64,000 bases of DNA from a virus (lineage: Duplodnaviria > Heunggongvirae > Uroviricota > Caudoviricetes). Below are positions 5,799 to 52,300 of the stretch, piece after piece. The stretch lies in IMG/VR virus record IMGVR_UViG_3300031873_001030. The stretch is one strand, 5' to 3'. The notes beneath the pieces were generated by a model. The model was not told the origin of the DNA, made no database searches, and saw only the letters and a list, made by a program, of their open reading frames with translations. Position 1 is the stretch's first letter. Each line of letters begins with the position of its first letter. A program made the translations under genes and the position numbers.

Positions 5799-5822
5799 AA
5801 TGTATCGTTAACCAAAATTCCA

Positions 5823-7020: not shown

Positions 7021-7201
7021 TTCCTCCAAAAAATTACTTATTCGATAGGGTAAGGATAGGTATGCTATGTCAGGGTCAGGTTTGGTTAGGTTTGATATGG
7101 TATGGTAAGGTAATTTAATACTTTTGCTTTGGTGCAATATGGTAATATTCGGTAGGGTATAATTCGGTGGGTTCCGTTAAGGTATGGTAAGGATTATATT
7201 T

Positions 7202-10649: not shown

Positions 10650-11186
10650 GTGACATCCAAAAAAACACTCAGGCTATTCGAGAGGGGCAATGTGATTCAT
10701 CAATTCATATCAAAAGTCCTATTGAGTTCGGAAGCAGTAAGGGAAGTAAAAAGTGAACAGTCACTAAGGATACCAAGGATATCTGACAACCCTAAGGAAA
10801 ATTTTCTAATCACAGGCAGATTTGATAACTTTATTGAATTAGTAGAAGGGGAAAATGTGCTGATTGAAGTGAAGACGACAAGAAATCTGGATTATCAGAA
10901 ATCAGCTTCATTGCATCATATCATGCAACTGACACCATATCTTTTATACAAGCAAGGTCTGAAAGGTGCCATATTGTATATAGACATGAACTTCCAGACA
11001 AAAGTATTTGAAGTGATTTATGACCCTAAATTGATGCTGGAAATAATGAAAAGGGCAGAAAATTTGCATATGTATTTAGTGGAAGACAAAATGCCGCTAC
11101 CAGAAGCCAAAGACATACCAGAAAAAAATTGGGAATGCAAATACATATGCAATTATAAAGAGGAATGTGATAAATGTGTTACCTAA
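10650..11186 (+). CDS. Cas4-like / RecB-family PD-(D/E)xK nuclease with Fe-S cysteines; the real N-terminus lies upstream of the track start
   Basis: GNVIH, GRFDNF...LIEVKT (D..ExK), QLTPY (QxxxY) and C-terminal CKYICNYKEEC. The conserved N-terminal SEIPYCLR with the fourth Cys is in frame upstream (10587-10610), where no canonical start exists. Confidence 0.7.
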   Translation: MTSKKTLRLFERGNVIHQFISKVLLSSEAVREVKSEQSLRIPRISDNPKENFLITGRFDNFIELVEGENVLIEVKTTRNLDYQKSASLHHIMQLTPYLLYKQGLKGAILYIDMNFQTKVFEVIYDPKLMLEIMKRAENLHMYLVEDKMPLPEAKDIPEKNWECKYICNYKEECDKCVT

Positions 11187-15984: not shown

Positions 15985-16499
15985 CTAAGCTTTCGTATCT
16001 TGACTTCGATGAATGTCTCGGCATCGAAAAACTTTCCAAACTTCAGAGGAATCCATATTATCTTCCCTCTTTTTCCCATCTGACCCACCTTACATCTAAA
16101 ACTTATTTCATTTATCATAAAATATATTAGTTTCATTAGAATATAAAGTTTTAAATTCAATTATAATACAGCAAATAGAAGTGACAATTATACCAAACCC
16201 AAGTTGAGTCACTGAAATGAGGATTTATAGTTCAATCCAATCTTTACAATTTCCACAGAAGTCTCCACCACTCTTACAGCTTCCATCATAAAAATTTTTA
16301 CAACTACTGCAGCATCTCAAGTTTTAACCTATTTTTAGCTTCTTCTTCCAACTTACATATTTCATTTATCGTATACATCACAATAACCTCCACATCTTCA
16401 ATCTGACAGCGAGTTTATACATATTATGCCAAAACCAACTGCCTTCATTCTTTCTCGCAAACATATATATTCCAACATATGTTATCAATGACATAATTG

Positions 16500-16775
16500 T
16501 AAACCACAGATTACCAGACCATACCCGAACCTATAAGACCACATCACACCTGAGCGAAAAGTGTTAACCATACCACATCAGACTTTATCATGCCTTACCA
16601 GTCCTTAACATATCGTAACTTACCACAACGTAGCATAAATGACAATCCATATCTTACCACACACCAACATATCTTACCAAAACCCACCCTAACCCATCTA
16701 ACCCAATCATAAATATAATCCCTATCTTACCAAATCCCATCACAACGGACCCTACCAAATCAGACCCCGTTAAAT
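16500..16775 (-). repeat. GGTNN pentanucleotide tract on the minus strand (NNACC on +)
   Basis: 5-nt reading ttacc agacc atacc ... accaa aaccc accct aaccc; lies downstream (sense) of minus-strand gene 16869..17171. Confidence 0.8.
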
Positions 16776-17742: not shown

Positions 17743-18933
17743 ATGACGTTGAAGAATCTTGTAACGCCATTGGAACTTAAGACTCTCTGGGATTCTGAAT
17801 ATTACAAATCAATATTGACAGCTACAGCTAGCAGCTGCCAATTTGGAAGGATAAGAGAACACCAACGTAATAATACATTCAAAGAAATCAGAGCCAATCT
17901 GAATGCTCTGATAGTTGGAGAATATGGAATTGGGAAATCCACAATGTTGGACATTAAGAATGTCCCAATAGTCAGGGCTAATACAGTTTCAGTTGCTGGA
18001 CTAGCTGGAACTACGACAAGAAGTGGGGAACACGTTATTGGAGCTGCATATAAAGCTAATAATAAATTACTAATTATAGATGACGTTGGTAGTGGTGAAA
18101 ATTCTTATATAGATAATTCTGTAAAACGATGCATGAATCTGCTATTGGAACCTCCGCATACTTTTTCACGAATGTTAGGATTTAAGATGAACATTCCTGT
18201 GAAAGAGAAGAAGGGTGGAGCTTGGGTGAAAGGAAGTGAGAATCAGTTTACATTGCGTTCTAAGTTCAGTTGCATCGTAGCTACAACATCAGTTGTAATT
18301 CGAAATACTGATGACAAAGCTTGGATGTCAAGATTCGTACCAGTAAAACTACATGGTAGTGTGGATTACATGTTTGAATTTTTATCTGGTTCTAATCCAT
18401 TTACAATTACTGGTTTGAATCGGAAAGTCAAGTTATTTGAATTTCCAGATTATCTGGAATTCTTGGAATTCTATGAAGAACATTTTCGTGGAAGTCTGTG
18501 GGAGAAAAGCATAATAGAAAAGGAAGATGAAGTCGGTTCTATAGCGAGAAATACTGGTGACTTGGTAAGATTGGCTGCTTTCAATTGCGCTGTCGATGAT
18601 AGAATAAATATAGAATTTGAAGATGCCAAGAAAGTTTTTGATAGGTTCTACAATCAGATATGGTTCAATATCCAAGTTGGACCACTGACTCATGAACAAT
18701 ATAGAGTTCTATTACTTCTCAATAAGAAGTTGACTGAAGATGAGATAGCAGAAACTATACAAAGGTCACAGCCTTACGTATCTAAGATGATAGAGAAATT
18801 TGAAAGTAAGGGAATACTTGTAGACAGAAAAGTTGCGAAAGAAGTTGAAAACTTTAAACAAACTTCATGGGAAAAACTCGAACCACAGCAGACTTTATCA
18901 GAATCTGTAAAGTTAGATGGTAGTCATGAGTGA
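17743..18933 (+). CDS. MCM-like AAA+ ATPase with C-terminal winged helix-turn-helix
   Basis: Walker A VGEYGIGKST, Walker B LLIIDDVG, sensor-1-like CIVATTS, Arg-finger-like MSRF (MCM SRFD), and C-terminal LTEDEIAETIQRSQPYVSKMIEKFESKGIL. Confidence 0.65.
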   Translation: MTLKNLVTPLELKTLWDSEYYKSILTATASSCQFGRIREHQRNNTFKEIRANLNALIVGEYGIGKSTMLDIKNVPIVRANTVSVAGLAGTTTRSGEHVIGAAYKANNKLLIIDDVGSGENSYIDNSVKRCMNLLLEPPHTFSRMLGFKMNIPVKEKKGGAWVKGSENQFTLRSKFSCIVATTSVVIRNTDDKAWMSRFVPVKLHGSVDYMFEFLSGSNPFTITGLNRKVKLFEFPDYLEFLEFYEEHFRGSLWEKSIIEKEDEVGSIARNTGDLVRLAAFNCAVDDRINIEFEDAKKVFDRFYNQIWFNIQVGPLTHEQYRVLLLLNKKLTEDEIAETIQRSQPYVSKMIEKFESKGILVDRKVAKEVENFKQTSWEKLEPQQTLSESVKLDGSHE

Positions 18934-21728: not shown

Positions 21729-22961
21729 TTGGAGATGAAAGTGATGAACATAGGTGAAGTTGAAATTGGAAAACCTTGGCAATATAAGGAAAATTCTATT
21801 GGAATTGTTGTTCCACTTTTAAGGAAGAATCAAGTCAAAAGAAATTATAAGACAGTTGAGGAAGTTAAGGAGATGATGAATATCAAGGATACTGGAAATA
21901 TAGACAGTGTTGAAATTTCCTCAAAAGTCAATGAACCAGTTTTTATCAGGAGCGGGACGATGTTTGAAGGGGTTGGAACTCAGAGCAGGACGCCAACAAC
22001 TAGCATTGTCATAATTCCAAATCAACAGCCTATGAAAGTTCCTGTAAAATGCATACATGCTTCTCATCACATATCTTCTGGAAGCAACTTTAAAGTCGCA
22101 GGTAGTATTCCCCACTATATTGGTTATGCAGCTTTTGGACCAAGGGCTAGTCAATCTCGTGTGTGGTCTTCTGTAAGCATGCAAGCAAGTTCTGTAAGCC
22201 ATCATGCTATGCATCTTTCTGACAATCTTATCGATAACGTAAGAAAAATAGAAACTTTTAAGAAAGATATTGGCGAAGCAGTTAAAAACTATCCGATATT
22301 GAAAAATCAAGTTGGTATAGTTGTTCTTGATTTTAACGGGGTTGTTGGTCTTGAGATGTTTGATAATTCTGAATCTTGGGCAGCAGTATGTAAAGACATA
22401 ATCAATAAGTATTCTGACACAATAACACAGCTTGTTGACAGTCCTTTATTTTCATTGAATGAAGAAAGCATAAAACCAAAGATATTGGAATTCTTGAAGA
22501 AGCTGACAGAAGCAAAAGAAGAGATTATCTTTCAAGCAGATGTGATGAAAACAATCTTATTGGAAAATGGAGATATCATTGGAGAATGTACGAGTATTGA
22601 TGGCAGGATGATACATCTCATGGGAATGAAAAAGAAGGATGAGGAAAGGACATATGGTTCAGTTGCTCCAAATAATTTACCATTTACACCACAAAATTGG
22701 ACAACCAGAGGTTCTAACTATTCTGTGCTATCTGCACTTGGAGATGGAAGTAGGAGATTTTCAGAAATAGAGAAAACAACTAAATTATCCCCAGCTACAG
22801 TAAGCAAAAATTTAAGCAAGTTCCATTCTCTTGGATTTATTGACAAGTCAGCAGAAATAATAAACAACAAGGCCCGTGAAGTTTATAGCCTTACAAGCAA
22901 CGGTAAAAATGCATTTTTTACTATGCATGATGTCAGGAAGAAATTGATGAAGCTTGGATAA
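21729..22961 (+). CDS. uncharacterised N-domain fused to a C-terminal wHTH (ArsR/TrmB-like)
   Basis: C-terminal YSVLSALGDGSRRFSEIEKTTKLSPATVSKNLSKFHSLGFI. Confidence 0.6.
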   Translation: MEMKVMNIGEVEIGKPWQYKENSIGIVVPLLRKNQVKRNYKTVEEVKEMMNIKDTGNIDSVEISSKVNEPVFIRSGTMFEGVGTQSRTPTTSIVIIPNQQPMKVPVKCIHASHHISSGSNFKVAGSIPHYIGYAAFGPRASQSRVWSSVSMQASSVSHHAMHLSDNLIDNVRKIETFKKDIGEAVKNYPILKNQVGIVVLDFNGVVGLEMFDNSESWAAVCKDIINKYSDTITQLVDSPLFSLNEESIKPKILEFLKKLTEAKEEIIFQADVMKTILLENGDIIGECTSIDGRMIHLMGMKKKDEERTYGSVAPNNLPFTPQNWTTRGSNYSVLSALGDGSRRFSEIEKTTKLSPATVSKNLSKFHSLGFIDKSAEIINNKAREVYSLTSNGKNAFFTMHDVRKKLMKLG

Positions 22962-24479: not shown

Positions 24480-24527
24480 TGTCAAATTAGAAATGCAATA
24501 CGATTGTTAACAAGAAAGTTAACAAAG

Positions 24528-24598
24528 TCTCACCTGCCAGAATTGCACCAGCATCTACGAGGCTACAGCTCGTTGTTCTACTGTTGAACTAAGGCGAG
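24528..24598 (-). tRNA. tRNA-Tyr (GTA)
   Basis: Hand fold CTCGCCT-TA-GTTC-AACAGTA-GAAC-A-ACGAG-CTGTAGC-CTCGT-AGAT-GCTGG-TGCAATT-CTGGC-AGGTGAG-A; C1-G72 as in archaeal/eukaryal tRNA-Tyr. Confidence 0.75.
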
Positions 24599-24601
24599 TT
24601 G

Positions 24602-24674
24602 TGGGGATGCTGAGATTTGAACTCAGATTATTCGCTTCCAGAGCGAAGGTTCTAACAAGTTATACTACATCCCC
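24602..24674 (-). tRNA. tRNA-Pro (TGG)
   Basis: Acceptor GGGGATG/CATCCCC, anticodon arm TTCGC-TCTGGAA-GCGAA, T arm CTGAG-TTCAAAT-CTCAG. Confidence 0.85.
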
Positions 24675-24677
24675 AAG

Positions 24678-24751
24678 GGAGAATAGAGGGATTTGAACCC
24701 TCTCTAACAAGTTCACAGCTTGACGTGCTCGCCTACTACACCATATTCTCC
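24678..24751 (-). tRNA. tRNA-His (GTG) with genomically encoded G-1
   Basis: G-GAGAATA...TATTCTC-C, D stem GTGT/GCAC, anticodon loop CTGTGAA, T arm GAGGG-TTCAAAT-CCCTC. Confidence 0.8.
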
Positions 24752-25212
24752 ATTTTATTATGTTCTTCTCTATGGCAATTTGCACATAGAAGTTTGCATT
24801 TCTGCAATTCTTTTCGTATCACCTCGAGACTATTATGCCATATTCTGGATATTTCATATTTCTTTTCTCCGTTCATATGATGAAATTCAAGTGCTGCGAA
24901 ACATTTGTTATATCCACATTTTTGACATTTACCTCCAAATTCCATTTTCATAATTTTTGTTTTTTCTTGGTTTTTACGCTTTTGTGCTATATACCACAAA
25001 TGTCTCTGAGGGAGAGATGATTTTTGTTTATGTTGTTTTATATATTTTCTCATATATTCTCTATGATATTTTTTCCTTTTTTCTCTGTTTTCAGGGTTTG
25101 ACAACCAAATTTTCCATCGTTCTTTTTCTTGCTCACGGTGTGATTTTCTATATAATCTATTTATTTCACACAATCGTTCTTTGTTTTTTTCATAATATTT
25201 TTTACTGGTCAT
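24736..25212 (-). CDS. HNH endonuclease with N-terminal basic Tyr/Lys-rich region, inserted in the tRNA cluster
   Basis: CQKCGY...LEFHH...N...CANCHREEH; its 3' end overlaps tRNA-His by 16 nt. Confidence 0.8.
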   Translation of the reverse strand: MTSKKYYEKNKERLCEINRLYRKSHREQEKERWKIWLSNPENREKRKKYHREYMRKYIKQHKQKSSLPQRHLWYIAQKRKNQEKTKIMKMEFGGKCQKCGYNKCFAALEFHHMNGEKKYEISRIWHNSLEVIRKELQKCKLLCANCHREEHNKMENMV

Positions 25213-25255
25213 ATAATGTAATTGTTTAATACCATTTATATTTGTTGTTGAACTA

Positions 25256-25330
25256 CGCTCTGGGCAAGACTCGAACTTGCAATTTCTCCGTTAACAGCGG
25301 AGCGCTTGTACCTGTTTAAGCTGCCAGAGC
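25256..25330 (-). tRNA. tRNA-Asn (GTT)
   Basis: GCTCTGG-CA-GCTT-AAACAGGTAC-AAGC-G-CTCCG-CTGTTAA-CGGAG-AAATT-GCAAG-TTCGAGT-CTTGC-CCAGAGC-G. Confidence 0.85.
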
Positions 25331-25333
25331 AAG

Positions 25334-25437
25334 TACTCCCCGAATGATTCGAACATTCGTCTCTTGGTTTCTCCAAGTTTCAGATTCTTGTTGAAATTAT
25401 CAAAGCCAAGCATCTTTGTCCACTGGACGAGGGGAGT
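25334..25437 (-). tRNA. tRNA-Gln (TTG) with a ~31-nt intron after position 37
   Basis: Acceptor ACTCCCC/GGGGAGT (A1-U72); anticodon stem CTTGG/CCAAG enclosing CTTTGA-[intron]-A; T arm GAATG-TTCGAAT-CATTC. Confidence 0.65.
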
Positions 25438-25466
25438 ATATTGATTGTAGTTCTTTTTAAAAACTA

Positions 25467-25538
25467 TGGACACAAGCGGGAATCGAACTCGCATCTCTTT
25501 CTTGCAAGGGAAGTATCCTACCATTAAACGATTGGCCC
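25467..25538 (-). ncRNA. degenerate tRNA-like element (Ala TGC-like anticodon loop CTTGCAA) with mismatches in the acceptor, anticodon and T stems
   Basis: GGGCCAA...TTGTGTCCA pairs at only 5 of 7 acceptor positions (2 mismatches). Anticodon stem CTTCC/GAAAG and T stem GCGAG/CCCGC each carry an A-C mismatch. Confidence 0.35.
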
Positions 25539-25702: not shown

Positions 25703-25729
25703 GATTTATCCCTCTAACGGGATTTATAT
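25703..25729. promoter_or_regulatory. GATTTATCCC-tctaac-GGGATTTATAT hairpin unit overlapping the XPF stop codon
   Basis: Read directly; same unit as 7707-7758 and 43483-43508. Confidence 0.5.
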
Positions 25730-26358
25730 TTTTCAGTCAATATCTTCTTGATTCTAGTTGAAAGTACGTCTCCTATTCCCTTTGCTTTCTGCAAGTCTTC
25801 CTCACTGGCTAAAAGTACTTTTTCAACAGAACCGAGATTTTCCAACAGCCTTTTGGATATTGTCGAATTTACTCCAGGAATGGAGGAGACTATCTGCTCT
25901 TGTATCTTTGACATTTCTGTCGGCACCTTTTCAAATTTGTATGATACAGTTCTTTTGCTTTCAACTTGCTCTTTTTTCGCAAGATGATATATCATTCTGG
26001 CAGTGTCCATTTTGTCCTTAGTATTTACTATGGAAATGTTGAATCTGATGATTAGACTTGCCATAGCGGCTTTCACAATGTTCACATCTATGCGTTCATT
26101 TGGAAATCCTTCTATGATTATGATGACAATCTTAAAATTGTCCTTCATCCTAGTTGTCTGTTCAAATAACCTTCCATCAAATATTGACGCTACAAAATCT
26201 TGATATGTCTTCCTTTCAATCACTGTCCTATCCGAAACTATGAAGTCTCCAACTTCCAAGAAAGATTCATTCAAGTTGACGTTGGCAAAATTTCTCAGAA
26301 AGTATATCAGCTCTTTTTCCCTGGAATCTGCTGATATCGTGATTTTAAATTCTTCCAT
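25714..26358 (-). CDS. short-form XPF/Hef-type ERCC4 nuclease with C-terminal (HhH)2
   Basis: DSRE...VGDFIV...VIERKTYQDFVASIFDGRLFEQ...IIIIEG; C-terminal IPGVNSTISKRLLENLGS...AKGIGDVLSTRI. Confidence 0.85.
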   Translation of the reverse strand: MEEFKITISADSREKELIYFLRNFANVNLNESFLEVGDFIVSDRTVIERKTYQDFVASIFDGRLFEQTTRMKDNFKIVIIIIEGFPNERIDVNIVKAAMASLIIRFNISIVNTKDKMDTARMIYHLAKKEQVESKRTVSYKFEKVPTEMSKIQEQIVSSIPGVNSTISKRLLENLGSVEKVLLASEEDLQKAKGIGDVLSTRIKKILTEKYKSR

Positions 26359-30241: not shown

Positions 30242-31066
30242 ATGGCTAAACTTACTGCTACTGTAAATGATGTTGTCATGTTCAAGTCTCTTTTTGGTCT
30301 GTTGTGCAGGAATTCTGATATGCTAAAATTTAAAGTCGATAAGGAAGGTATAAGTTCTGTTACTATGCCTGCGGATATGGCGACTTTTCTTAGTGTTTTG
30401 ATAAAGCCAAATTTCTTTGAGGAATGGAATTTTGAAGGTTCGTTCATGTATTGCTATTTTGACCCGCAGCAATTTTCTCGGATGATGAAGAATCTTACCT
30501 CGAAGAAGATTGAGATGGTGCTTGATGAGAATTATATAAATTTCAGTCTTGAGAACGAGGGAAGAAAGAAACATATCTCATTGGTACAGATTACTGGAGA
30601 ATTGTCAGAGCTTCCTGGGAATTTGGGAACTGATTTTGATTTTTCATGGATTATTGAGATAGAGACTTTGAAAAGCATTGTGGATGATATTGTCAATGTC
30701 GATGACAATGCGGATTTGTCTTCCATCTATTTCACATGGGAAAAAGACAGTCTGAAAGTTGAAGCAAGGGAGAGTAAGGTCATGAAGTTTGAGACTATTA
30801 TTGGCCCACCTTTTGTGAAATGTGGTAGCGGGCATTCTTCTTTTAGGACCAATTATTTTTCAAAGATAGTCTGGGCTGGTCTTGGTAAGATTAGATTTTC
30901 AATCTTGAATACTGACGGTCCAGCTTTTATGGAGACTTGTGATGATAGCAAGTTCTCATTGAAATTTATTGTGGCGCCTTTTGTGGCAAGTAATCCTGAT
31001 ATGGATATCACGTCCGAGAATGACGGTAAAAGTTCACAAGATAGTGAGGTGGTAAGTGATGGGTAA
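30242..31066 (+). CDS. divergent PCNA-like sliding clamp with acidic C-terminal tail
   Basis: Colinear resemblance to archaeal PCNA recalled from memory: FKVDKEGISSVTMPADMATFLSV vs FKVTEDGISMRAMDPSRVVLIDL, and terminal LKFIVAPFV vs LTFLLAPRV; ~250-aa core. Confidence 0.65.
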   Translation: MAKLTATVNDVVMFKSLFGLLCRNSDMLKFKVDKEGISSVTMPADMATFLSVLIKPNFFEEWNFEGSFMYCYFDPQQFSRMMKNLTSKKIEMVLDENYINFSLENEGRKKHISLVQITGELSELPGNLGTDFDFSWIIEIETLKSIVDDIVNVDDNADLSSIYFTWEKDSLKVEARESKVMKFETIIGPPFVKCGSGHSSFRTNYFSKIVWAGLGKIRFSILNTDGPAFMETCDDSKFSLKFIVAPFVASNPDMDITSENDGKSSQDSEVVSDG

Positions 31067-31520
31067 ATGTACAGCGTGTGGAAAAAACATAGGAATGTTT
31101 GGTAGCAGCAAGTCTTGCGATGCTGAAGATTGTAAAGTTGAAGGTCTGTGCAAGGAATGTTCGTCTGCCAAATTGTCAGACTGCGAAAAATGCGGATATA
31201 CATTCTGCATTGCTCACATAAAAAATCATGAATGCGAAGAGGAAAGTGATAAGGAAGAGAGTGAGGATTCTGAAGATGGAGAAGAGGAGGAAGAGCCTGT
31301 TGAATTGTCTGAAGATGATGTCCATATCTCAAAGGATAAGAAATTTAAGATGCTTCTTTTGGAAGATTACTATAATGAAGATATTGTAAACTTCCTTGAA
31401 GAGACGGAAAAGGAAGGGTATGTGCTTATCGGCACCGATATGGGCAATAGCATGTACTTATTCAAGAACTTTTCTTTAGAAAAGAAAAGTTCACAAAAGA
31501 AAGAAGGAGAAAGTGCATGA
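31056..31520 (+). CDS. Cys-rich zinc-finger (AN1-like second half CxxCx4CxxHx3HxC) protein with an acidic linker
   Basis: CEKCGYTFCIAHIKNHEC; Glu/Asp-rich run. Confidence 0.5.
   Translation: MMGKCTACGKNIGMFGSSKSCDAEDCKVEGLCKECSSAKLSDCEKCGYTFCIAHIKNHECEEESDKEESEDSEDGEEEEEPVELSEDDVHISKDKKFKMLLLEDYYNEDIVNFLEETEKEGYVLIGTDMGNSMYLFKNFSLEKKSSQKKEGESA
31466..31492. repeat. GAACTTTTCTT-tagaa-AAGAAAAGTTC palindrome plus ACAAAAGAAA tail, inside the 3' end of ORF 31056..31520
   Basis: Read directly. Confidence 0.9.
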
Positions 31521-31547
31521 AGAATCAAGAATCAGAAAATTCTTTGT

Positions 31548-31569
31548 ATACTTTCTTTGAAGAAAGTAT
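31548..31569. promoter_or_regulatory. ATACTTTCTT-tg-AAGAAAGTAT palindrome upstream of the SPFH gene
   Basis: Part of the 29-bp block TTCTTTGTATACTTTCTTTGAAGAAAGTA (31541-31569), repeated exactly at 33876-33904; followed by GGAGGT and ATG 31587. Confidence 0.85.
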
Positions 31570-31586
31570 TTGGAGGTTATAAAGAA

Positions 31587-32483
31587 ATGATAATGACAAC
31601 AGGAAGTTGGATATTGGCAGGATTAGGTGCCTTCATATTCATAATGTTTCTTTCTGGAATAAGGATAGTAAGGCCTTTGGAAAGGGGTTTGGTTGAAAGG
31701 TTTGGTAAGTATCATAGGTTTGCCATGCCAGGTTTCAATTGGATAATCCCAGTATTTGACAGCATGTACAGAATCAACATCACCGAGACTATGGTGAATG
31801 CTGAACCTCAGCAGATTATTACTATGGATAAACTGAATGCCACAGTTGATGCGCAGGTTTATTTCAAGGTAAAAGATGATGAGACTTCTGTGAAGGCTTC
31901 TCAATATAACGTCTACAACTACAGGTACCAGATTGTAAATCTTGCGAGGACTACTCTGAGAAACATCATAGGTACGATGTCCCTTACTGATGCAAATAGC
32001 AAGAGGGATGTGATAAACAAGGATTTGATGGATACTCTCAGTGTCGAGACAAAGAATTGGGGTATACAAGTTGTGAGGACTGAATTGAAGGAGATAGACC
32101 CGCCAGAAGATGTACAAGCTACAATGAACAGGGTAGTGAAAGCGGAGAATGAAAAGATGGCTGCCATAGACTTTGCAACAGCTGCAGAGACTCAGGCAGA
32201 TGGTCTTAAGAGAGCGAAGATAAAGGAAGCGGAAGGTCTGAGGCAATTTGAGATATTGCGTGCAGAAGGTAATAAGCAGGCGACTATACTTGAAGCTGAC
32301 GGAAGAGCTCAGGCTATCAAGCTTGTGAATGAGGCTGCAGAAAAGTATTTCATTGGAAATGCCCAGAAATTGAAGACTCTCGAAGTCACTCAGAGTTCAT
32401 TGGAAAGCAATACAAAAATAATAGTTCCGAACGACCAGAAAATCATAAATGTGATAGGAAACTTAATCGGCGAAAAATTATAG
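31587..32483 (+). CDS. SPFH/band-7 (stomatin/prohibitin-like) membrane protein
   Basis: N-terminal TM, then IRIVRPLERGLVERFGKY...GFNWIIPVFD...VDAQVYFKV and a C-terminal coiled Ala/Glu-rich region. Confidence 0.85.
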   Translation: MIMTTGSWILAGLGAFIFIMFLSGIRIVRPLERGLVERFGKYHRFAMPGFNWIIPVFDSMYRINITETMVNAEPQQIITMDKLNATVDAQVYFKVKDDETSVKASQYNVYNYRYQIVNLARTTLRNIIGTMSLTDANSKRDVINKDLMDTLSVETKNWGIQVVRTELKEIDPPEDVQATMNRVVKAENEKMAAIDFATAAETQADGLKRAKIKEAEGLRQFEILRAEGNKQATILEADGRAQAIKLVNEAAEKYFIGNAQKLKTLEVTQSSLESNTKIIVPNDQKIINVIGNLIGEKL

Positions 32484-32484
32484 A

Positions 32485-32506
32485 GAAACTTTTTCAAAAA
32501 AGTTTC
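32485..32506. repeat. GAAACTTTTT-ca-AAAAAGTTTC palindrome 1 nt after the SPFH stop
   Basis: Read directly. Confidence 0.85.
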
Positions 32507-32564
32507 ATCAAAAAATCTGTGGTAGGGTTTGGTATATTGATTTTGTTAGTGAGGAGTATATAAA

Positions 32565-32807
32565 ATGACGAAAACAATAGTTGAGGAAAGTGTGATGCCG
32601 CATAAAAATGATTTCAGTTTTGACGAAGGAAAATCTTTTCTTGTAGAGGAATTTAAGATTAATGATAATCTTAGAAGAAGATATGTGAAGCTTATTGACC
32701 AGCATGGAAAATTCGAATTGTCTTTGTCACAGTTCAAATGGATTGTTGAAAAAGTCAATTGCATAGAATCTGAAGTAAATGTATATGAAAAACAATTGAG
32801 ATTGTGA
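32565..32807 (+). CDS. hypothetical protein
   Basis: ORF track. Confidence 0.45.
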   Translation: MTKTIVEESVMPHKNDFSFDEGKSFLVEEFKINDNLRRRYVKLIDQHGKFELSLSQFKWIVEKVNCIESEVNVYEKQLRL

Positions 32808-33193
32808 ATATGAAAAATATAAAGATAACGACAAAAATTTGTGACAAGCATTTTGCAATTTTGAGATATGAAAGTGATGATATGATTAGTGCGAAGAAGG
32901 TTTTCAATAAGCTGAATTGTAAGTTTAATTTCAAAGAGACTTGGTTCGTATCTGTTGATGGGATGATTTTTTCCATATCTTTCTGCCTTTATACTTGGTC
33001 GAAATACAAGTCGATGATTTATGCAAAAGGTATTTCAAAGAATTTCCGTGAAGGATGTTTGAAGGATAGGTGCGGTTGTCTTGTGTTGAAACCTGGCTGC
33101 AAGTTTAAAGTATTGTACAAATTCAATCAGGAGCGTTCGAATCAGGAACTTAAGAATAGCATTCAAGATATATTAACTAGGAAAGAATTATAA
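32804..33193 (+). CDS. hypothetical protein
   Basis: ORF track; 4-nt overlap. Confidence 0.45.
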   Translation: MNMKNIKITTKICDKHFAILRYESDDMISAKKVFNKLNCKFNFKETWFVSVDGMIFSISFCLYTWSKYKSMIYAKGISKNFREGCLKDRCGCLVLKPGCKFKVLYKFNQERSNQELKNSIQDILTRKEL

Positions 33194-33200
33194 TTATGGA

Positions 33201-33222
33201 GAACTTTCTTCAAAGAAAGTTC
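33201..33222. promoter_or_regulatory. GAACTTTCTT-ca-AAGAAAGTTC palindrome plus ACAAAGAAA tail
   Basis: Read directly; followed by GGAGGT and ATG 33247. Confidence 0.85.
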
Positions 33223-33246
33223 ACAAAGAAATTGGAGGTAACTGGT

Positions 33247-33501
33247 ATGAGTAAAGAAGCTGCAAGTAAGGAAGATGGTAGAGGAAGAAACGCAGTTTCT
33301 TCCCTAATGCATAAGCTGAAGATGGAAAAAAGATATAAAGGTAAGAAGATTGTTTCGATGAAGGAACGGTTCCTTAAGACTGCGCATCAGAGAGGGAAGA
33401 TGAAAAAAGGAATGACTAAATCCCAGATGAAGAAAGAAATCAAGCAAAGATTAAAAGATAAAAAACCAATATATCAATCAAGGCTTACCGATTATGTTTA
33501 A
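33247..33501 (+). CDS. small basic Lys-rich protein (track start 33196 lies before the palindrome)
   Basis: GGAGGT 8 nt before ATG 33247; in frame with the track ORF. Confidence 0.45.
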   Translation: MSKEAASKEDGRGRNAVSSLMHKLKMEKRYKGKKIVSMKERFLKTAHQRGKMKKGMTKSQMKKEIKQRLKDKKPIYQSRLTDYV

Positions 33502-33829
33502 GAAGAAAAAAGTTTCGGCGAGACAGGAAGTAGAAGATATACGGAATAAAGTACATCAATCTGTACATTCTAAAGATAGGATGTCTTTAAAGGAAGAGCT
33601 TGATGAACTTCATGCACAGATACATGAGTCTGGAAAAGTTCGGATGCCTACTAGGGGGGAGATATATGGACATCCAACAAAGCCGATTGGAATCTGCTTG
33701 AAATGCAAAAAGATGTTTCCGACTGAGCAGCTTCAACGTTATTATATAAATCCAGAAGAGTGTTATTGGTTGTGTCCAAAGTGCGGTTTCAAGAAAAGAA
33801 TGAGAGAAAAGTTTTCATCGAGATTATAA
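33494..33829 (+). CDS. protein with C-terminal zinc ribbon (CLKC...CPKC)
   Basis: ORF track. Confidence 0.5.
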   Translation: MFKKKKVSARQEVEDIRNKVHQSVHSKDRMSLKEELDELHAQIHESGKVRMPTRGEIYGHPTKPIGICLKCKKMFPTEQLQRYYINPEECYWLCPKCGFKKRMREKFSSRL

Positions 33830-33882
33830 TTAAGTGATAAGAGGCAATAGAAAGTGAAAGAAGAAATCATTAATTTCTTTGT

Positions 33883-33904
33883 ATACTTTCTTTGAAGAAA
33901 GTAT
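33883..33904. promoter_or_regulatory. ATACTTTCTT-tg-AAGAAAGTAT palindrome abutting the PrimPol-like start
   Basis: Identical to 31548-31569. Confidence 0.85.
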
Positions 33905-33905
33905 T

Positions 33906-34622
33906 ATGATAGAAGATGAAATTATAAGCGGGAGAATTTCTATTGGTCGGGTTGGTATTTATCTTAATGCTAAGACTAAAGGTGGTTACAATATAGGATT
34001 TAATTTTCTTAATAGTCCAGAGCTGAGGACTGCGGGCGTGTGCAATATCACGAAGGACCAGATGTTTATAATGTTTGCTGATTTTGACAATATAGGTTAT
34101 GAAAAACTTAAAGACCAGTTGGATTTCATAAATAGGAATCATGATGTGAGCAATTTTCTTGTTCTTACGACTGGAAAGAATCGATATCATGTGATAAGTT
34201 TTGAAAAATTCTGGAAACAGGAATTAGTTGACATATTGAAGAATACTTTCTGCGATTATACGTATAAAAGTTTTGTTCCGTTGAAAGTTGACAAGGGCTG
34301 GATACTTAGGGTGACTGAAAAGAGGGATTTGGATAATAATGTTGTGAAGGACAGGCCTGAATATGTAGAATCGTTTTCTTATTCTGAAGTCCCTAAGAGG
34401 AGATTGTCGCGTGCTCACGTAGAATTTTTTTCGAGAATGTATCCTGAATTCAGGAAATTTGCAGAGGAGAAGCTTGATAAAAATTATTGGGATGAGTTTA
34501 CTGTGATTCAGCTGCTGAAATATGGGACAAGCCATGAGAATCTTATTGCAAAATTTGACTTGAAGGATTTGATAGATTCCAAGAAGCTTGAAATAGTGTG
34601 GAAGGACAATATATTTGATTAG
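33906..34622 (+). CDS. archaeo-eukaryotic primase (AEP)/PrimPol-like replication protein (tentative)
   Basis: FIMFADFDNI (hhhDxD) and LTTGKNRYHVISF (sGxxxH) occur in the order and spacing of AEP motifs I and II; motif III is unclear. Confidence 0.5.
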   Translation: MIEDEIISGRISIGRVGIYLNAKTKGGYNIGFNFLNSPELRTAGVCNITKDQMFIMFADFDNIGYEKLKDQLDFINRNHDVSNFLVLTTGKNRYHVISFEKFWKQELVDILKNTFCDYTYKSFVPLKVDKGWILRVTEKRDLDNNVVKDRPEYVESFSYSEVPKRRLSRAHVEFFSRMYPEFRKFAEEKLDKNYWDEFTVIQLLKYGTSHENLIAKFDLKDLIDSKKLEIVWKDNIFD

Positions 34623-34623
34623 T

Positions 34624-34694
34624 GACAATGAACCTCAGAGTAGGAACCAACTGGAAAGTGGAATCAGCAAGTCATAACTGCGAGGTTCATTGTC
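34624..34694 (+). repeat. imperfect-hairpin element, copy 4
   Basis: Outer stem GACAATGAACCTC/GAGGTTCATTGTC; starts 2 nt after the stop of 33906..34622. Confidence 0.75.
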
Positions 34695-34739: not shown

Positions 34740-35402
34740 ATGACCGATATCGATGCCGAAAAAGTTTGGAGCTCTCTTAGAAGGGAAAAGACATTGGATT
34801 TGTTAGGGCTTACTGACAGTGAATTGAGGGATATTGTTGATTCGCTTATTGATGAGGCTGGATTTCCTGCGACTAATTTGGGAGATGAAGCTAGGGAATT
34901 GCTGACAGATGAGGCTAGAAAGGAAGCTGGTCCTGAGGAGGAAGTTGAAAGAGAAAAAGAGATAGAGGAAGCAGAAGAAGTCACTGAAGAAGAGCTTGAA
35001 GCTGCTAGGGAAGGAAGAGCTGAAGAGAGAAGGGAAGAGCGTCTTGAACGTCTTGGAGAAAGGAGACCAAGAAGGGAAAGAGGAGTTGGAATTGAGCCTA
35101 TGGAATTGCCTAAAGTGAAGATTCCAGAAGAGAGGATTCCAGAAATAAGAGTTCCTCCTGGAGTTGAACTTCCAGTTATTCGGGAATTTGAAACTCCATC
35201 TAAGCGCATGGAAAGGGTCATAGGTGAAGTTGAGGGTGGTGTAGAGAAGAGAATAAAAGAGACTGATGAAAAGACAAAAGAGATTAGTAAAGGTCCAGTT
35301 AGTTTTGGCCAGAGAGTTGCCGATACTGCAAGAAATGTGAGGGATACTGTTATTAATGTTTCAAAGCGTATAATTGATAGAATAAGGCAATTAGGTAGAT
35401 AA
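34740..35402 (+). CDS. Glu/Arg-rich acidic protein
   Basis: ORF track; preferred over the Ser-rich antisense ORF 34721..35221. Confidence 0.55.
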   Translation: MTDIDAEKVWSSLRREKTLDLLGLTDSELRDIVDSLIDEAGFPATNLGDEARELLTDEARKEAGPEEEVEREKEIEEAEEVTEEELEAAREGRAEERREERLERLGERRPRRERGVGIEPMELPKVKIPEERIPEIRVPPGVELPVIREFETPSKRMERVIGEVEGGVEKRIKETDEKTKEISKGPVSFGQRVADTARNVRDTVINVSKRIIDRIRQLGR

Positions 35403-35408: not shown

Positions 35409-35490
35409 TGTGATGAGTTAGGGTCCGATGGGGTAAGTTAGGATATTGTGAGGTCGGATGTGGTATGTTTGGTGAGGTAAGGTATGGTCC
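35409..35490 (+). repeat. short GGTNN tract filling the intergenic gap
   Basis: gttag ggtcc gatgg ggtaa gttag ... ggtga ggtaa ggtat ggtcc gatat ggttt. Confidence 0.7.
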
Positions 35491-35502
35491 GATATGGTTT
35501 AA

Positions 35503-35982
35503 GTGATTGATATGAAAATTGAAGTAAGGATGCACCATCTTAGCGAACTTAAGAGAAAGTTGCTTGATTCTGATATGAATCATACCAAGTATATTTTACT
35601 GGATGAGATGAGAGCGACGATAGATAAGTTGAAGGGTGACAGGAATCTCATGTTCAAGATTGTTGCTATGATGTCGAAAGTGACTACTGCTTCTCGGTTG
35701 ACTACTGAAGGGATGATAATGGCTTTGGAAAATATGGTTTTGTTTGATATAATGCAATATGATATTTTACAGGATGGTGATGTGACTGTTTTGAATCTGA
35801 ATGTTGATGATAATTATTTTGAGATTTTTAACAAGATTCCTCTGATTGGCAGGTTTATCTCAACTCTTTCTGGAGGAAGAAAAAGATATTTGGAAGAGGT
35901 GAGAAAAACTATAGAGGAGGATTATACAAAAGATTATACACTGAAAATAATCATGGATGATACAAAGGAGGTTCATGAATAA
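35503..35982 (+). CDS. hypothetical protein
   Basis: ORF track. Confidence 0.5.
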   Translation: MIDMKIEVRMHHLSELKRKLLDSDMNHTKYILLDEMRATIDKLKGDRNLMFKIVAMMSKVTTASRLTTEGMIMALENMVLFDIMQYDILQDGDVTVLNLNVDDNYFEIFNKIPLIGRFISTLSGGRKRYLEEVRKTIEEDYTKDYTLKIIMDDTKEVHE

Positions 35983-36239
35983 TGAATCGCGTCACATTGT
36001 ACATATTAAAATGCGATAATGGAATGTTTTATACTGGTATTACTAGAGATTTAAAAAAGAGACTTTTTCAGCATAGAAATTGTAAAAGTTCTTCATTTGT
36101 AAAAAGAAGAAATTTAAATTTTGATGTTGTTTATACTGAAACTTTTGGGAATTGGACACTTGCTAGAAAAAAGGAAAAATATTATAAGAAGATGAATAGG
36201 GAAAAATTAAAAAAAATTATAAAGAGTGTGACGCGATGA
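35982..36239 (+). CDS. GIY-YIG nuclease-domain protein (paralog 2)
   Basis: LYILKCDNGMFYTGITRDLKKRLFQH...RKKEKYYKKM; colinear with 26599..26859. Confidence 0.8.
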   Translation: MNRVTLYILKCDNGMFYTGITRDLKKRLFQHRNCKSSSFVKRRNLNFDVVYTETFGNWTLARKKEKYYKKMNREKLKKIIKSVTR

Positions 36240-42583: not shown

Positions 42584-43328
42584 TTTGGTACAATTCAATT
42601 GTTCTATTTGGAAAACCAAAAGAATTTGATGTGTTTACTTCTTCATCATTTTGAGGTTCGATGAAAATTCTACCTTTGTCTGTAGTGTTGAATATTATTA
42701 TTGCATGCCCTATTGTGTAATTTTTCCATTCAATATATACTAAGCCAATACTGATGTGTTGTTTAAGAGAATTTAATATGATGTCTCGACTAAAGTCCCA
42801 ACAATTATAAGTTTCATTATATGTGTTTTCATTTGTCTTATCAGTAGCTATGAAATTTTTCATATCATTATATGTTGGGTCTTGAGAATTTTCATAGAAA
42901 AGGTAGTCATTTAAATTCCACGTATTACGATAGAATGTTGTCAAGTTAGTTGTGTTAAAGACTGATATATTTGTTATGTTCAATACTGTCAAATTAGTTG
43001 TGTTAAAGACTGATATATTTGTTATGTTCAATACTGTCAAATTAGTTGTGTTAAAGACTGATATATTTGTTATGTTCAATGTTGTCAATTCTGTTATGTT
43101 CGTTACGTTTAATACTGTGATATTAGTTATGTTAAGAATTTTGATGTTTGATATCGAACTGTTGACTAAATTTATCTTATCGTCTAAAAGAGTTTTTACA
43201 CTGCTTAGTTCATTTTGTGTGGAAGTTAGACTTTTTTGTATTTCAGATGTTTTTTGAATCTGAAAAATTATTGTAATCAAGGTTGCAATAAAAATTGTGG
43301 AAAAGACGAAGATTGTCTTTGAATCCAT
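42573..43328 (-). CDS. membrane-anchored protein: NIT/NTT 16-aa repeats plus a C-terminal Cys-His domain (possible thiol-peptidase/transglutaminase-like core)
   Basis: TM helix near the N-terminus; NITNISVFNTTNLTVL x3; YNCWDF...IGHAIIIF...IEPQNDE. Confidence 0.65.
   Translation of the reverse strand: MDSKTIFVFSTIFIATLITIIFQIQKTSEIQKSLTSTQNELSSVKTLLDDKINLVNSSISNIKILNITNITVLNVTNITELTTLNITNISVFNTTNLTVLNITNISVFNTTNLTVLNITNISVFNTTNLTTFYRNTWNLNDYLFYENSQDPTYNDMKNFIATDKTNENTYNETYNCWDFSRDIILNSLKQHISIGLVYIEWKNYTIGHAIIIFNTTDKGRIFIEPQNDEEVNTSNSFGFPNRTIELYQIIW
42939..43082 (-). repeat. 48-bp tandem repeat x3 (near perfect), with degenerate copies to ~43140, inside CDS 42573..43328
   Basis: Units start at 42939, 42987 and 43035. 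Confidence 0.9.
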
Positions 43329-49388: not shown

Positions 49389-52300
49389 ATGCATTGGAAA
49401 CATTTACTTACTCATAAGTCTCTTTTTCTGGAGGGGATTCGAATCAGTATAAGATTGTCAAAGGCAACTGTAAAGATTACAAGCTTGATATTCGCATTGG
49501 CTCTGATTGGAACTTTTGGCTATCTTTTTATCTCCAATGTCAGCAACAAAGTGAGTGGAGATTCTTATAATGACATAAATATGAGTGATATAGTCAATAA
49601 TACTATAGTGACAGCATCTAGTTATTCGAATTATGAATATGAGGTGACTAAAAATGTATACAAGACTTATTTCCAAGACAATATCAATTCAGGTGAAGCT
49701 GTAAGGTTTGAGAAGGATGGATATTATTTCATATATGATTTGAGTGGTGGAAAGATTCAGTGGGCAGAACAAGATGGAAACCCTACGAAGACAAAGTCCA
49801 TAGGAGCAATATTATCTTCTCCGATAAGTCTTGCTGGTGATAAAGTTTATTACAATGATGCTTTTGCATATACAAATGTGAGTTATCTTATCTTGAATGA
49901 CATGCTCAAAGAGAATTTCATATTGTCATCATCGTTGCCGATAGATGACACATACTTGTATTTGGAATATACTGGTGAGATAAAGCATTCGGATAGTCTG
50001 ATGATTTATGCAAATGATAAGAATCAGACTGAAAAGAATTTTGTAACTCAAGGTAAGATAGAATTCAAGGATGTAAATGGAACTACGATATTTTTCTTAC
50101 CAGCACCTACAGTAACTGATTCGAATGGAAAGTCGGAATATGGTTTTTATGATATAAAAATTTCCAGTGGAAAGATTGCATTCAATCTTAGAGTGAACAG
50201 CACTTTCTTGAAAAATGCCGCTTACCCAGTGTATATAGACCCAACTATTAGAACTTTCAATGATACATTATCATCAAAAAACTTGACATTTATATGGAAT
50301 CAGAATCAGACACTTTATATATCAATACCAAAAAATGCTATAGTTACAAATGCTTACTTGAATTTGAGTGGATTCCCGGCACAGAATAATGTAAATTTCT
50401 TTGACCCCTTAGACAATGGAAATTATATTAGTTCAACCAATGCTATAGTAAGTGGCGGGCAAATAACATTAAATCGTCAAAACAATACAGGGGAAAGTTT
50501 TACTTCACCTCCCTGCAGTGAAATACAATATATAGGCGGTACCGTACCAGGTACTTATGCAACTGCACAATCCTTTAGAGCATCGGGTGTGTATCTTTCA
50601 TATATTAAAGTCAAGTTCTTCAATCAAGTCACCGCAACATTATCAATAAGGTCGAGTTTAGCTGGAGCCAATCTTGTTTCTACAAGTGTTGCAAGCGGAG
50701 ATGAGAGATATTATGAATGGTATATCACAAACCCACCAGCGCTCACTGTTGGTAATACTTACTACATAGTTCTTACATGGAGTTCTGACGGAAGCAATTA
50801 TGGAGGCTTGAGACAGGCTTGCTACAATTATTTGTATCCGAACGGAACTTATTATGCTTACTTGTTAAGTTCCTGGAACACTGAACCGAATGGGGCTTAC
50901 TATGACCATGCTTTTGAAACAAAATACTGGGAGTATGATACAAGCAATTATGTTAATTCAGTTGCAATAGACACCACATCATATTATTTGAATGCAACCT
51001 TAACAAAATCAGATAACATACCAGCAGGAACATCAATAACTTATTATTTAAGTTCAAATGGTGGCGCGTCTTGGGAACAAGTCACCTCAGGCATAAATCA
51101 TACATTCTCTAATATCGGGCAAGATATCAGATGGAGAGGAGTATTGACAACAAATTCTGATAGGTCATCAACACCAACACTTTATAACATGACTGTGAAT
51201 GCATCTCAAGGGTATTGGCCAATGAATCCTTATCTTGATATTTCTGGGGATGGAGACGTGGAATGGAATTATACAGGAACATTTAATCAATCAAACAATA
51301 GGACAGCAAACTTATCCTCTGAAATAAACACATATTTGTCGACTTGTACACCAACAAGTGGGAATTGCACAATGCCATTAGTATTCCATTCAGATACAGC
51401 AGGAATAATTCAGGTTTCAGATATCAACATAACATATAATGTGCCTTTTATATCGGTTTGGAATACTTCAAAGGCAGGAACTAGCAACTCTACACAGATT
51501 GAATTGCCTTTATACAATGGAGGCACTTATGCATTTACAGTGGACTGGGGTGATGGAACAACAGATTACATCACTTCATATCTGAATGATAACCACACTT
51601 ATGCGACAGCAGGGGTTTACGTTGTGAACATAGCTGGGACTATAAATGGATTCAGGTTCAACAATGGTGGCGACAGATTAAAGATTATCAACATCACACA
51701 ATGGGGAGACTTGAATGTAGGAAATTCTGGTAATTATTTTCACGGTTGTGCTAATTTGAATAGCAATGCCACTGATAACTTGAATTTGGCAGGAACTACG
51801 GATTTGTCTAATATGTTTTATTCAGCTACTTCCTTCAATGGAAGTATTTCAGGCTGGGATACAAGTGGTGTCACTTCCATGTATACTATGTTCTATGGCG
51901 CTTCTAATTTTAATTCGAATATTTCAAGCTGGAATACAGGAAATGTAATCAATATGGAATATATGTTTTATACCGCTTCTTCCTTTAATCAGAATATTTC
52001 AAACTGGAATACAGGAAAAGTCACTAGTATGTTAAGTATGTTTCATGGTGCCACTTCTTTCAATCAGAACATAAGCAATTGGGATGTCAGTAAAGTCACT
52101 ACTATGTCTGATATGTTTCATAGTGCTACTTCCTTCAATGGAAATATTTCAGGCTGGAATGTAGTCAATGTCACTACTATGTATGATATGTTCCATAGTG
52201 CCACTTCTTTCAATCAGAGTATGAGTAGTTGGAATACAGGAAATGTTGCTACTATGTTTTCCATGTTTTATGGTGCTACTGCTTTCAATGGCAATATTTC

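Follow-up and report, generated by a model that had tools for sequence, protein, structure and literature searches.

Most proteins encoded by Borg-type and other large archaeal extrachromosomal elements are hypothetical, and the way these elements replicate is not yet settled. The closest described systems to the locus considered here are the mini-Borgs of Methanoperedens, which have genomes of 52-145 kb at 31.6-35.9% GC, coding on a single strand per replichore and a matching cumulative GC skew; their proteins are mostly hypothetical, and the annotated ones are mainly glycosyltransferases and methyltransferases (bioRxiv 10.1101/2023.08.02.551345; bioRxiv 10.64898/2026.05.22.727314; PMC12660748). 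The mini-Borg paper of this three-paper set reports that these elements do not encode complete replication machinery. The same set includes a table of Borg single-copy markers with a ‘DNA polymerase sliding clamp PCNA’ and a ‘possibly primase-polymerase’, for which the Pfam column of the gene tables is empty (Rose Borg and Ceres, respectively). The Ceres mini-Borg protein has a structural match to Prim-PolC, and SPFH and ARPP-1 subfamilies occur in the Borg gene tables (bioRxiv 10.1101/2023.08.02.551345; bioRxiv 10.64898/2026.05.22.727314; PMC12660748). Here, we analyze a stretch of 64,000 nucleotides from IMG/VR record IMGVR_UViG_3300031873_001030 (the window) and focus on a gene cluster at 30.2-36.0 kb. 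It encodes a divergent homologue of the sliding clamp PCNA and, likely, a compact enzyme of the archaeo-eukaryotic primase (AEP) superfamily.

The window corresponds to ~9.1-73.1 kb of a 91,950-bp ENA contig (92,011 bp in another source), the ends of which lie 9.1 kb and 18.8 kb outside it. The GC content is 0.32-0.42 per 2-kb bin, mostly ~0.35. Long open reading frames (ORFs) are nearly all on the plus strand, interrupted by short islands of minus-strand ORFs at ~13-17 kb and at 24.5-26.4 kb. Cumulative GC skew climbs over the window, and a dip at ~12-18 kb coincides with the first of these islands. Many of the ORFs scanned encode glycosyl- and methyltransferases. No ribosomal, RNA polymerase or aminoacyl-tRNA synthetase genes occur among the ~50 ORFs scanned, as an initial annotation of the window had stated, and this supports its description as an accessory element devoid of core informational genes. 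The window does have five tRNA genes. Searches with tblastn returned no match in deposited phages for either the clamp or the AEP-like protein, and the latter also has no match in plasmids (tblastn) and no relative in IMG/VR (profile search).

Like mini-Borgs, whose genomes are linear and flanked by inverted terminal repeats, the element combines ~35% GC, a length of ~92 kb, one-strand coding with GC skew, a wealth of glycosyl- and methyltransferase genes and a partial replication gene set. It is probably a low-GC, Borg-like archaeal extrachromosomal element, and gene content and the general genome description make it most like a mini-Borg. Two observations sit less well with that identity. 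The sequencing runs and assemblies that contain the window and its relatives are absent from the supplements of the Borg and mini-Borg papers. Further, mini-Borgs feature pervasive perfect tandem repeats, whereas the window has a single near-perfect array (42939-43088; a 48-nt unit in 3.1 copies with 97% matches and a degenerate 24-nt sub-period), and its other tandem arrays are degenerate.

The two proteins at the center of this analysis are:

30242..31066, plus strand: divergent PCNA-family sliding clamp, 274 aa (PDB phmmer, NCBIfam and family profile)
33906..34622, plus strand: orphan-family AEP-like protein, 238 aa, a putative primase or primase-polymerase

The clamp ORF is present as first annotated (30242-31066), down to the KFIVAPFV close to its end and the Ser/Asp/Glu-rich tail that follows. 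The ten best phmmer matches in PDB are all archaeal PCNAs (best E 0.003 with the single sequence), and five NCBIfam archaeal ‘DNA polymerase sliding clamp’ models match with E 7e-11 to 7e-6. In the alignment to NF002222, clamp residues 6-248 cover model positions 4-242 of 245. Relatives are few. A word-indexed database yielded one, and an exhaustive search of 1.84 billion representatives added ten. A profile of the eight closest members (each with E <= 5e-9 to the window clamp) aligns end-to-end with PDB PCNAs over positions 1-246 (E 1e-19 to 1e-26), and a 12-member profile matches them with E 1e-28 to 1e-59; Pfam PCNA_N is matched individually by seven of the 12 family members. The C-terminal motif hh-x-APF[VI] is conserved across the family and takes the form FILAPRVESD in the distant member P0034; human PCNA ends in ...YYLAPKIEDEE. 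The PCNA assignment thus stands at the level of profiles (NCBIfam, and the 8- and 12-member profiles against PDB), and we consider homology to PCNA established.

Homology does not extend to orthology. The protein is too divergent to be an orthologue (equivalog) of any cellular clamp, because it has no Pfam match even at E 10 and its best NCBIfam score of 42 bits is far under the cut-off of 284 bits for that model (curated cut-offs are 207-293 bits). It therefore fails the orthologue-level thresholds of both Pfam (PCNA_N/PCNA_C) and NCBIfam. In length, in colinearity over both domains and in the C-terminal hydrophobic-AP-hydrophobic motif it resembles archaeal and eukaryotic PCNAs (Pfam PCNA_N/PCNA_C; NCBIfam PRK01115; viral and Borg PCNAs). 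Unlike them, it has very low identity to any solved PCNA, is Pfam-negative and carries a variable, acidic, Ser-rich tail, and no cognate RFC or polymerase gene was found nearby.

The AEP-like ORF (33906-34622, 238 aa from its ATG) is also present, and contains both of the motifs initially picked out, FADFDNI and GKNRYHV. It belongs to a tight orphan family of 22 proteins, 224-274 aa long except for one 143-aa fragment, and none of the 22 has a precomputed Pfam domain. Across 21 sequences, which are 40-74% identical to the window protein, residues D59, D61, H95, D117, D129, G131-R135 and K139 are invariant. Motif I (D59-x-D61) closes a predicted strand at 54-61. In motif II (TTGKNRYH), T89 and H95 are invariant and G90 nearly so, and H95 opens a predicted strand at 93-102. 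The spacing from D61 to H95 is 34 residues, presumably the same as that from D111 to H145 in pRN1 ORF904.

The best AlphaFold2 model of the AEP-like protein has a predicted local distance difference test score (pLDDT) of 71.9, with 86-94 in the core. A helix and a strand separate the DxD and His strands, and the model appears to reproduce the beta(DxD)-alpha-beta-beta(His) arrangement of motifs I and II in AEPs. In a fold comparison, ranks 3-6, 10 and 17 are yeast and human PriS, African swine fever virus PrimPol, a CRISPR-associated Prim-Pol, S-2L PrimPol and human PrimPol. The primase-type matches have the longest alignments among the matches, at 100-120 residues. Sub-threshold Pfam matches across the family involve five Pfam families, two of which are AEP families (RepB_primase, E 0.1, residues 55-111; DNA_primase_S, E 0.019, residues 74-182), and both of these fall on the motif region. 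Motifs and predicted fold make membership of the AEP superfamily quite likely; primase or polymerase activity is somewhat less so.

Compared with characterized AEP PrimPols (HP0184, 2ATZ; RepB' and cyanophage S-2L PrimPol, which form the PrimPol-PV1 group; PriS), the window protein shows no profile-level similarity. Unlike these, it lacks a fused helicase, PriCT or zinc domain and is adjoined by a separate gene for a 4-Cys Zn-ribbon protein. Also distinctive is a family-specific C-terminal peptide (window 34566-34622), S-[KR]-[KRN]-L-x-[IVL]-x-W (S-K-K-L-x-I-x-W), followed by acidic residues. It is found in nearly all 21 members and falls in the low-confidence tail of the model. The peptide is a candidate protein-docking motif, distinct from a canonical PCNA-interacting protein (PIP) box, and might dock onto the clamp. 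The Ceres ‘possibly primase-polymerase’ has other genomic neighbors and may represent a separate family. Given AEP motifs, moderate agreement in fold and failure of every profile comparison, we class the protein as probably representing a new, divergent family of AEPs, and not as belonging to one already described.

Between and beyond the clamp and AEP-like genes the cluster encodes the following (L numbers designate contigs and loci used for comparison):

31059..31520, plus strand: Cys-rich zinc-finger protein with an acidic region, 153 aa (L009; PHROG 18518, E 3e-4; a 149-aa gene occupies the same slot in L016)
31587..32483, plus strand: SPFH/Band 7 membrane protein (Pfam Band_7 PF01145, E 5e-37, 128 bits against a cut-off of 23.6)
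32804..33193, plus strand: conserved module protein with no assigned function, 129 aa (syntenic homologues 39-45% identical in L001, L003, L005 and L006)
33247..33501, plus strand: small, very basic protein, ~84 aa, motif HKLKMxKRY...FLKTAHQR (orthologues in L001, L003, L006 and L016)
33494..33829, plus strand: conserved 4-Cys Zn-ribbon protein, CxxC...CxxC, with a conserved terminal EKFSS
34740..35402, plus strand: acidic, Glu-rich module protein, 220 aa (C-terminal homology to ~245-aa genes that follow the AEP-like gene in L001, L003 and L005)
35503..35982, plus strand: conserved module protein, 159 aa (homologues 41-57% identical in L001, L003, L005 and L006)
35982..36239, plus strand: GIY-YIG nuclease-domain protein, 85 aa (Pfam GIY-YIG, E 6e-13)

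All window ORFs were compared by tblastn with contigs that carry AEP-like relatives. In L001, L003/L004 and L005, the AEP-like gene is preceded at a distance of a few kb by the gene for a clamp homologue with ~30% identity (E ~1e-37), and the AEP-like proteins there are ~50% identical to that of the window. Gene order is the same in each: clamp, homologue of the 32804 gene, small basic protein, Zn-ribbon, AEP-like protein, and homologues of the 34740 and 35503 genes. L016, with a 61% identical AEP-like protein, has the order of the window itself (partial clamp, 149-aa protein, Band_7, 128-aa, 72-aa and 116-aa proteins, AEP-like protein). The clamp and AEP-like genes of the window are 2.84 kb apart, as first noted. 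Because this synteny is kept despite only ~30% and ~50% protein identity, the comparison supports a functional link between clamp and AEP-like gene. We regard 30.2-36.0 kb as probably a conserved, replication-associated module of the ~92-kb element.

The Zn-ribbon gene lies directly upstream of the AEP-like gene at every locus examined (L001, L003, L005, L007, L008 and L016), including the distant loci L007 and L008. AEP primases (PriS, PrimPol, pRN1) normally carry a zinc-binding element. Given this, and given that the Zn-ribbon gene is always adjacent, its product may be a primase zinc finger encoded in trans. The small basic protein has no family match and is a candidate nucleic-acid-binding protein; the 32804..33193 protein likewise matches nothing in Pfam, PHROG or NCBIfam.

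The SPFH gene was identified correctly in the initial annotation (Band_7, E 5e-37). In the slot between the clamp and the 32804 gene, L016 has a Band_7 gene, but L001, L003 and L005 have a small ORF and a ParB-HTH gene, and the zinc-finger gene at 31059..31520 is missing from the module in these three as well. The pair is therefore a cassette of one sub-clade and lies outside the conserved module, and the role of SPFH in replication may be nil. The window protein has a strong Band_7 domain and an N-terminal hydrophobic segment, and in the Red Borg table an SPFH gene is found beside a zinc-ribbon gene, as in the window. It differs from the usual SPFH arrangement in that no NfeD-type partner was seen and in its placement in a replication module, after an element-specific palindrome.

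This palindrome belongs to a repeat with three copies:

31540..31570, plus strand: repeat P1, 31 bp identical to P2, palindrome at 31550-31567, in the 66-nt spacer before the SPFH gene
33875..33905, plus strand: repeat P2, 31 bp identical to P1, palindrome at 33885-33902, directly before the ATG at 33906
33202..33230, minus strand: repeat P3, inverted copy of the 29-mer with 3 mismatches, perfect core at 33203-33220

A 29-bp block before the SPFH and AEP-like genes had been proposed as a shared control element. The block is exact, although one base lower than first given (31540-31568 and 33875-33903), and zero chance matches of this kind are expected. The identity reaches 31 bp (31540-31570 = 33875-33905), and side-by-side alignment of P1 and P2 shows looser similarity for ~15 nt further upstream. 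Each of the three sites carries the 18-bp core ACTTTCTTnnAAGAAAGT as a perfect palindrome, where shuffles predict 0.06 matches. P1 is 19 nt from the SPFH ATG (31587) with GGAGG between, P3 is 26 nt from the ATG at 33247 of the small basic protein gene with GGAGGT between, and no Shine-Dalgarno sequence precedes the AEP-like ATG at P2. Orthologues of the small basic protein do not have the N-terminal extension implied by an ATG at 33196; 33247 is the likelier start, and P3 is therefore most likely intergenic. Spacers are scarce in this densely packed module, and three of them hold the three copies. Within the repeat, the left-hand portion, TTTGTATA, resembles an archaeal TATA box, and transcription could start near the AEP-like ATG to give a leaderless mRNA.

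A tentative interpretation, to which we give slightly less than even odds, is that the palindrome is a putative operator, recently acquired by the element, of a dimeric DNA-binding protein. Several findings count against a control function and against a conserved one. The palindrome is not upstream of the orthologues in L001, L003, L005 and L007 and occurs nowhere in L016 and L017; it is missing even from relatives whose AEP-like proteins are 61% and 74% identical. L003 has a different, unrelated palindrome upstream of the orthologue, and no spacer precedes the SPFH gene of L016. The inverted orientation of one copy is ill-suited to a directional promoter element, and the palindrome has no named cognate regulator. 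With three copies, one of them inverted, and absence from all relatives examined (L001, L003, L005, L007, L016, L017), we reject the palindrome as a conserved control element. It arose recently, is confined to this element and stands outside the conserved design of the module.

The same absence, which extends to L016 with its identical gene order, is what would be expected if the 31-bp repeats were REP-like or duplicated palindromic elements, or scars left by a recent rearrangement around the SPFH cassette, with effects on expression that are at most incidental. This explanation, which we rate somewhat below the operator, is also favored by the 31/31 identity of P1 and P2 between diverged flanks, by the inversion of the entire 29-mer at P3 rather than of the core alone, and by the other repeat families of the element (15 TTAACATATGTTAA sites and four copies of a 79-nt hairpin). 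It accounts less readily for the position of all three copies 3-27 nt before start codons, in the few spacers of a packed module, and for palindrome arms that are perfect at all three sites even though P3 differs in loop and flank, which suggests selection on the symmetric core. A Logan contig from the same sample (L009; SRR9651338) carries the clamp and ends ~20 bp before P1, at ~31520; the break is consistent with an exact 31-bp repeat collapsing a short-k-mer assembly graph.

How secure is the AEP-like assignment? The initial annotation had made it depend on profile searches, and these were not significant: the protein has no significant match in Pfam, NCBIfam, PHROGs or PDB, by sequence or by profile. 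The 21-sequence profile finds only noise among PDB sequences, hhalign of the family against the prim-pol domain of pRN1 ORF904 gives no match, and Foldseek of the model against PDB and BFVD returns nothing at E <= 0.001. Confidence in the model is uneven as well, in that the other four of the five AlphaFold2 models have pLDDT of only 39.7-47.4. Motif III is ambiguous, with two invariant candidates, D117 and D129 (DKGWILR), around which segment 119-130 of the model has pLDDT <50. These points all weaken the assignment, which survives on the motifs, the fold matches and the weak Pfam matches on the catalytic core. The alternative is that the 238-aa protein has a generic ferredoxin- or RRM-like fold outside the AEP superfamily, for instance in a nucleic-acid-binding or regulatory protein, and that its conserved acidic and His residues serve otherwise, as in metal binding or a nuclease. 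We consider this unlikely, at odds below those given to the repeat-element explanation above, and retain the AEP-like protein as a probable primase relative.

For the clamp, the questions are what it does and with which partners. Other genes with possible roles in replication or repair include:

25714..26358, minus strand: short-form XPF nuclease, ERCC4 + HhH2 (Pfam ERCC4, E 3e-26; HHH_5, E 3e-7)
17743..18933, plus strand: P-loop NTPase with a C-terminal winged helix, 396 aa (Pfam MCM, E 0.003 over residues 42-92; winged helix-turn-helix families over 315-362)

XPF was named correctly at the outset (ERCC4 at E 3e-26, plus a helix-hairpin-helix), and a Cas4-like nuclease (10650-11186) and a ParB-like protein (4011-4895) are weaker but acceptable, the former as a PD-(D/E)XK nuclease (E 6e-7) and the latter by a PHROG match (E 6e-6). 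The 17743..18933 protein had been labeled MCM-like. We reject this reading, as the MCM match (E 0.003) spans only ~50 residues around Walker A and the protein has no PDB match. A 40% identical homologue of this ATPase is encoded 2 kb upstream of the Zn-ribbon/AEP-like pair in L008, and it probably belongs to the same functional set as that pair. Over ~80 kb of the 92-kb contig (the window and the flanks inspected), we found no gene for a DNA polymerase, for RFC or for a recognizable replicative helicase. Thus, the earlier statement that the window encodes most of a private replication toolkit was too strong; the toolkit is partial, and the element must rely on host enzymes. Of the initial interpretation as a whole, the PCNA homologue, the likely AEP, the accessory nature of the element and the clamp-AEP link remain; the toolkit was overstated, and neither the palindrome as a conserved control element nor SPFH as part of the conserved module is supported.

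Several results complicate a role of the clamp as a processivity factor. The window and the flanks inspected yielded no gene for RFC or another AAA+ clamp loader. Archaeal XPF is a known PCNA client, yet no C-terminal PIP motif is visible in the window XPF, and a canonical PIP box is absent from the sequences of both XPF and the AEP-like protein. The AlphaFold2 model of the clamp, made from a two-sequence alignment, is poor (pLDDT 42; predicted template modeling score 0.34) and unfit for use, although the order of its secondary-structure elements is compatible with the fold; because of this pLDDT, we can only infer that the protein forms a ring. Host factors could supply both the clamp loader and PIP-bearing clients.

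One could instead suppose that the clamp acts in checkpoint or repair in the manner of a 9-1-1 clamp, or as a decoy for clients of the host PCNA. Its extreme divergence from cellular PCNAs, the weak Rad1, Rad9 or Hus1 matches of some family members, the lack of an element polymerase or RFC in the ~80 kb searched and the presence of repair nucleases (XPF, GIY-YIG, PD-(D/E)XK) on the element would all fit. The conserved synteny with a primase-like gene, full-length colinearity with homotrimeric PCNAs and retention of the PCNA C-terminal motif speak against it, and we judge it improbable, a little more so than the non-AEP alternative for its neighbor.

The explanation that best accounts for the whole, with a probability of roughly 0.7, is as follows. 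The module encodes its own sliding clamp, for which homology to PCNA is clear, and likely a small, single-domain enzyme of the AEP superfamily. The Zn-ribbon protein encoded just upstream would provide the zinc finger, which in most AEP primases is part of the same polypeptide, and the AEP and Zn-ribbon pair would make primers on element DNA and may extend them. The clamp would tether a polymerase to element DNA, together with clients such as the element XPF and small DNA ligase. Because none were found on the element, polymerase, clamp loader and helicase would come from the host. Finally, the palindrome, if it is an operator, would couple three transcription units, those of the SPFH, small basic and AEP-like genes.

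Beyond the module, the window contains further repeats, some of them strongly structured:

34616-34694, plus strand: fourth copy of a 79-nt hairpin repeat, beginning at the AEP-like stop codon
4937-5015, 6149-6225 and 6942-7020: other copies of the 79-nt hairpin repeat, in an ORF-poor tract
5081-7680 (plus), 35431-35510 (plus) and 16491-16710 (minus-strand sense): G/T-rich tracts
L001 12831-12910; L003 9541-9610 and 11691-11770; L016 ~2690-2745: G/T-rich tracts in relatives
700, 988, 1575, 1613, 2314, 2359, 2425, 2491, 5432, 5478, 5823, 12361, 12398, 24416 and 24466: palindrome family TTAACATATGTTAA

The 79-nt repeat forms a long hairpin with folding energies of -26 to -44 kcal/mol (z-scores -3.3 to -9.2). 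All four copies pair perfectly along the 13-bp outer stem, in which two positions have changed on both sides, although with four copies covariation statistics are not meaningful. The stem motif was not found in ten related loci, and Rfam, which matched only tRNAs, has no family for the hairpin repeat or the palindromes. The G/T-rich intergenic tracts consist of degenerate units (GGTTCGGT, GGTATGGT, GGTAAGGT) and keep to the coding strand in every case. A 2.6-kb block, ORF-poor and strongly strand-asymmetric, is the largest of them; shorter tracts occur in relatives, for example before the homologue of the 35503 gene and before the AEP-like gene. These tracts are candidates for an origin, priming sites or promoter-associated elements. 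The TTAACATATGTTAA family comprises 15 sites, 14 of them perfect, against 0.03 expected. The sites are often paired 38-66 nt apart and are mostly intergenic, in the left part of the window and beside the tRNA cluster; they are likely a putative operator of another regulator.

RNA folding also bears on the repeat of the module, where the palindrome might act as a stem-loop in the 5' untranslated region that tunes translation initiation at the three genes or the stability of their mRNAs. Predicted hairpins of -7.8 and -11.9 kcal/mol (z ~-2.4) do lie directly 5' of the AUG (P2) or the Shine-Dalgarno sequence (P1), but they have weak stems rich in A/U, 3-6 shuffles in 200 are equally stable and the distance to the start varies from 3 to 27 nt, so that we give this idea as little credit as the checkpoint clamp. 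More speculative still is a true primase-polymerase, formed by the AEP-like and Zn-ribbon proteins, that primes and replicates the ~92-kb element while tethered to the clamp via S-K-K-L-x-I-x-W, with the GGT tracts and 79-nt hairpins as initiation sites. We think this very unlikely; if true, it would be a clamp-coupled PrimPol replisome that operates without a family B or D polymerase.

Other features of the element, and of the contig beyond the window, are:

24527-25538, minus strand: tRNA cluster, Tyr-GTA, Pro-TGG, His-GTG and Asn-GTT (ARAGORN), with a fifth tRNA at 25468-25538 (Rfam only)
21729-22961: protein with an ARPP-1 domain (E 3e-25) and a C-terminal winged helix
44139-48161 and 49389-60647 in the window, and L012 11697-20450: giant ORFs
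L015 1933-7247, left flank of the same contig: MoxR-type AAA+ ATPase (475 aa), VWA protein (540 aa) and small ATP-dependent DNA ligase (274 aa)

The tRNA cluster directly adjoins the XPF gene. Homologues of the ARPP-1 protein in L001 and L003, both related elements, are 37-45% identical to it, and its Pfam family is also listed in the Borg gene tables. The giant ORFs in the window encode proteins of 1,340 aa, with no family match, and 3,752 aa, with DUF285/BspA-like repeats (E 3e-138), and are followed outside it by ORFs of 1,736 and 1,460 aa. In L001 and L007, giant proteins end in a stretch conserved with the final 60-80 residues of the 1,340-aa protein. The MoxR, VWA and ligase genes lie 3-8 kb left of the window start, and the ligase has the adenylation domain only. 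A scan of genome collections gave a sole match, the 8.8-kb contig CAZQJQ010000033.1 (L008), with the ATPase-winged helix, Zn-ribbon and AEP-like genes. It is filed in a metagenome-assembled genome of an ‘uncultured Clostridiaceae bacterium’, and is probably a mis-binned fragment of an extrachromosomal element that is uninformative about the host.

It is common for archaeal mobile elements to carry genes for a clamp and an AEP primase and still to depend on host polymerases, and for this reason the general picture is unchanged by the locus described here. What is new is modest: the synteny of clamp, Zn-ribbon and AEP-like genes, an apparently split zinc finger and a conserved C-terminal peptide. 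Two families of hypothetical proteins can now be annotated, one as a PCNA clamp missed by domain databases and the other as a compact, 22-member family that is probably a new and very divergent branch of the AEPs. The module of clamp, Zn-ribbon and AEP-like genes may serve as a marker set for finding related elements, and it offers a small set of testable proteins.

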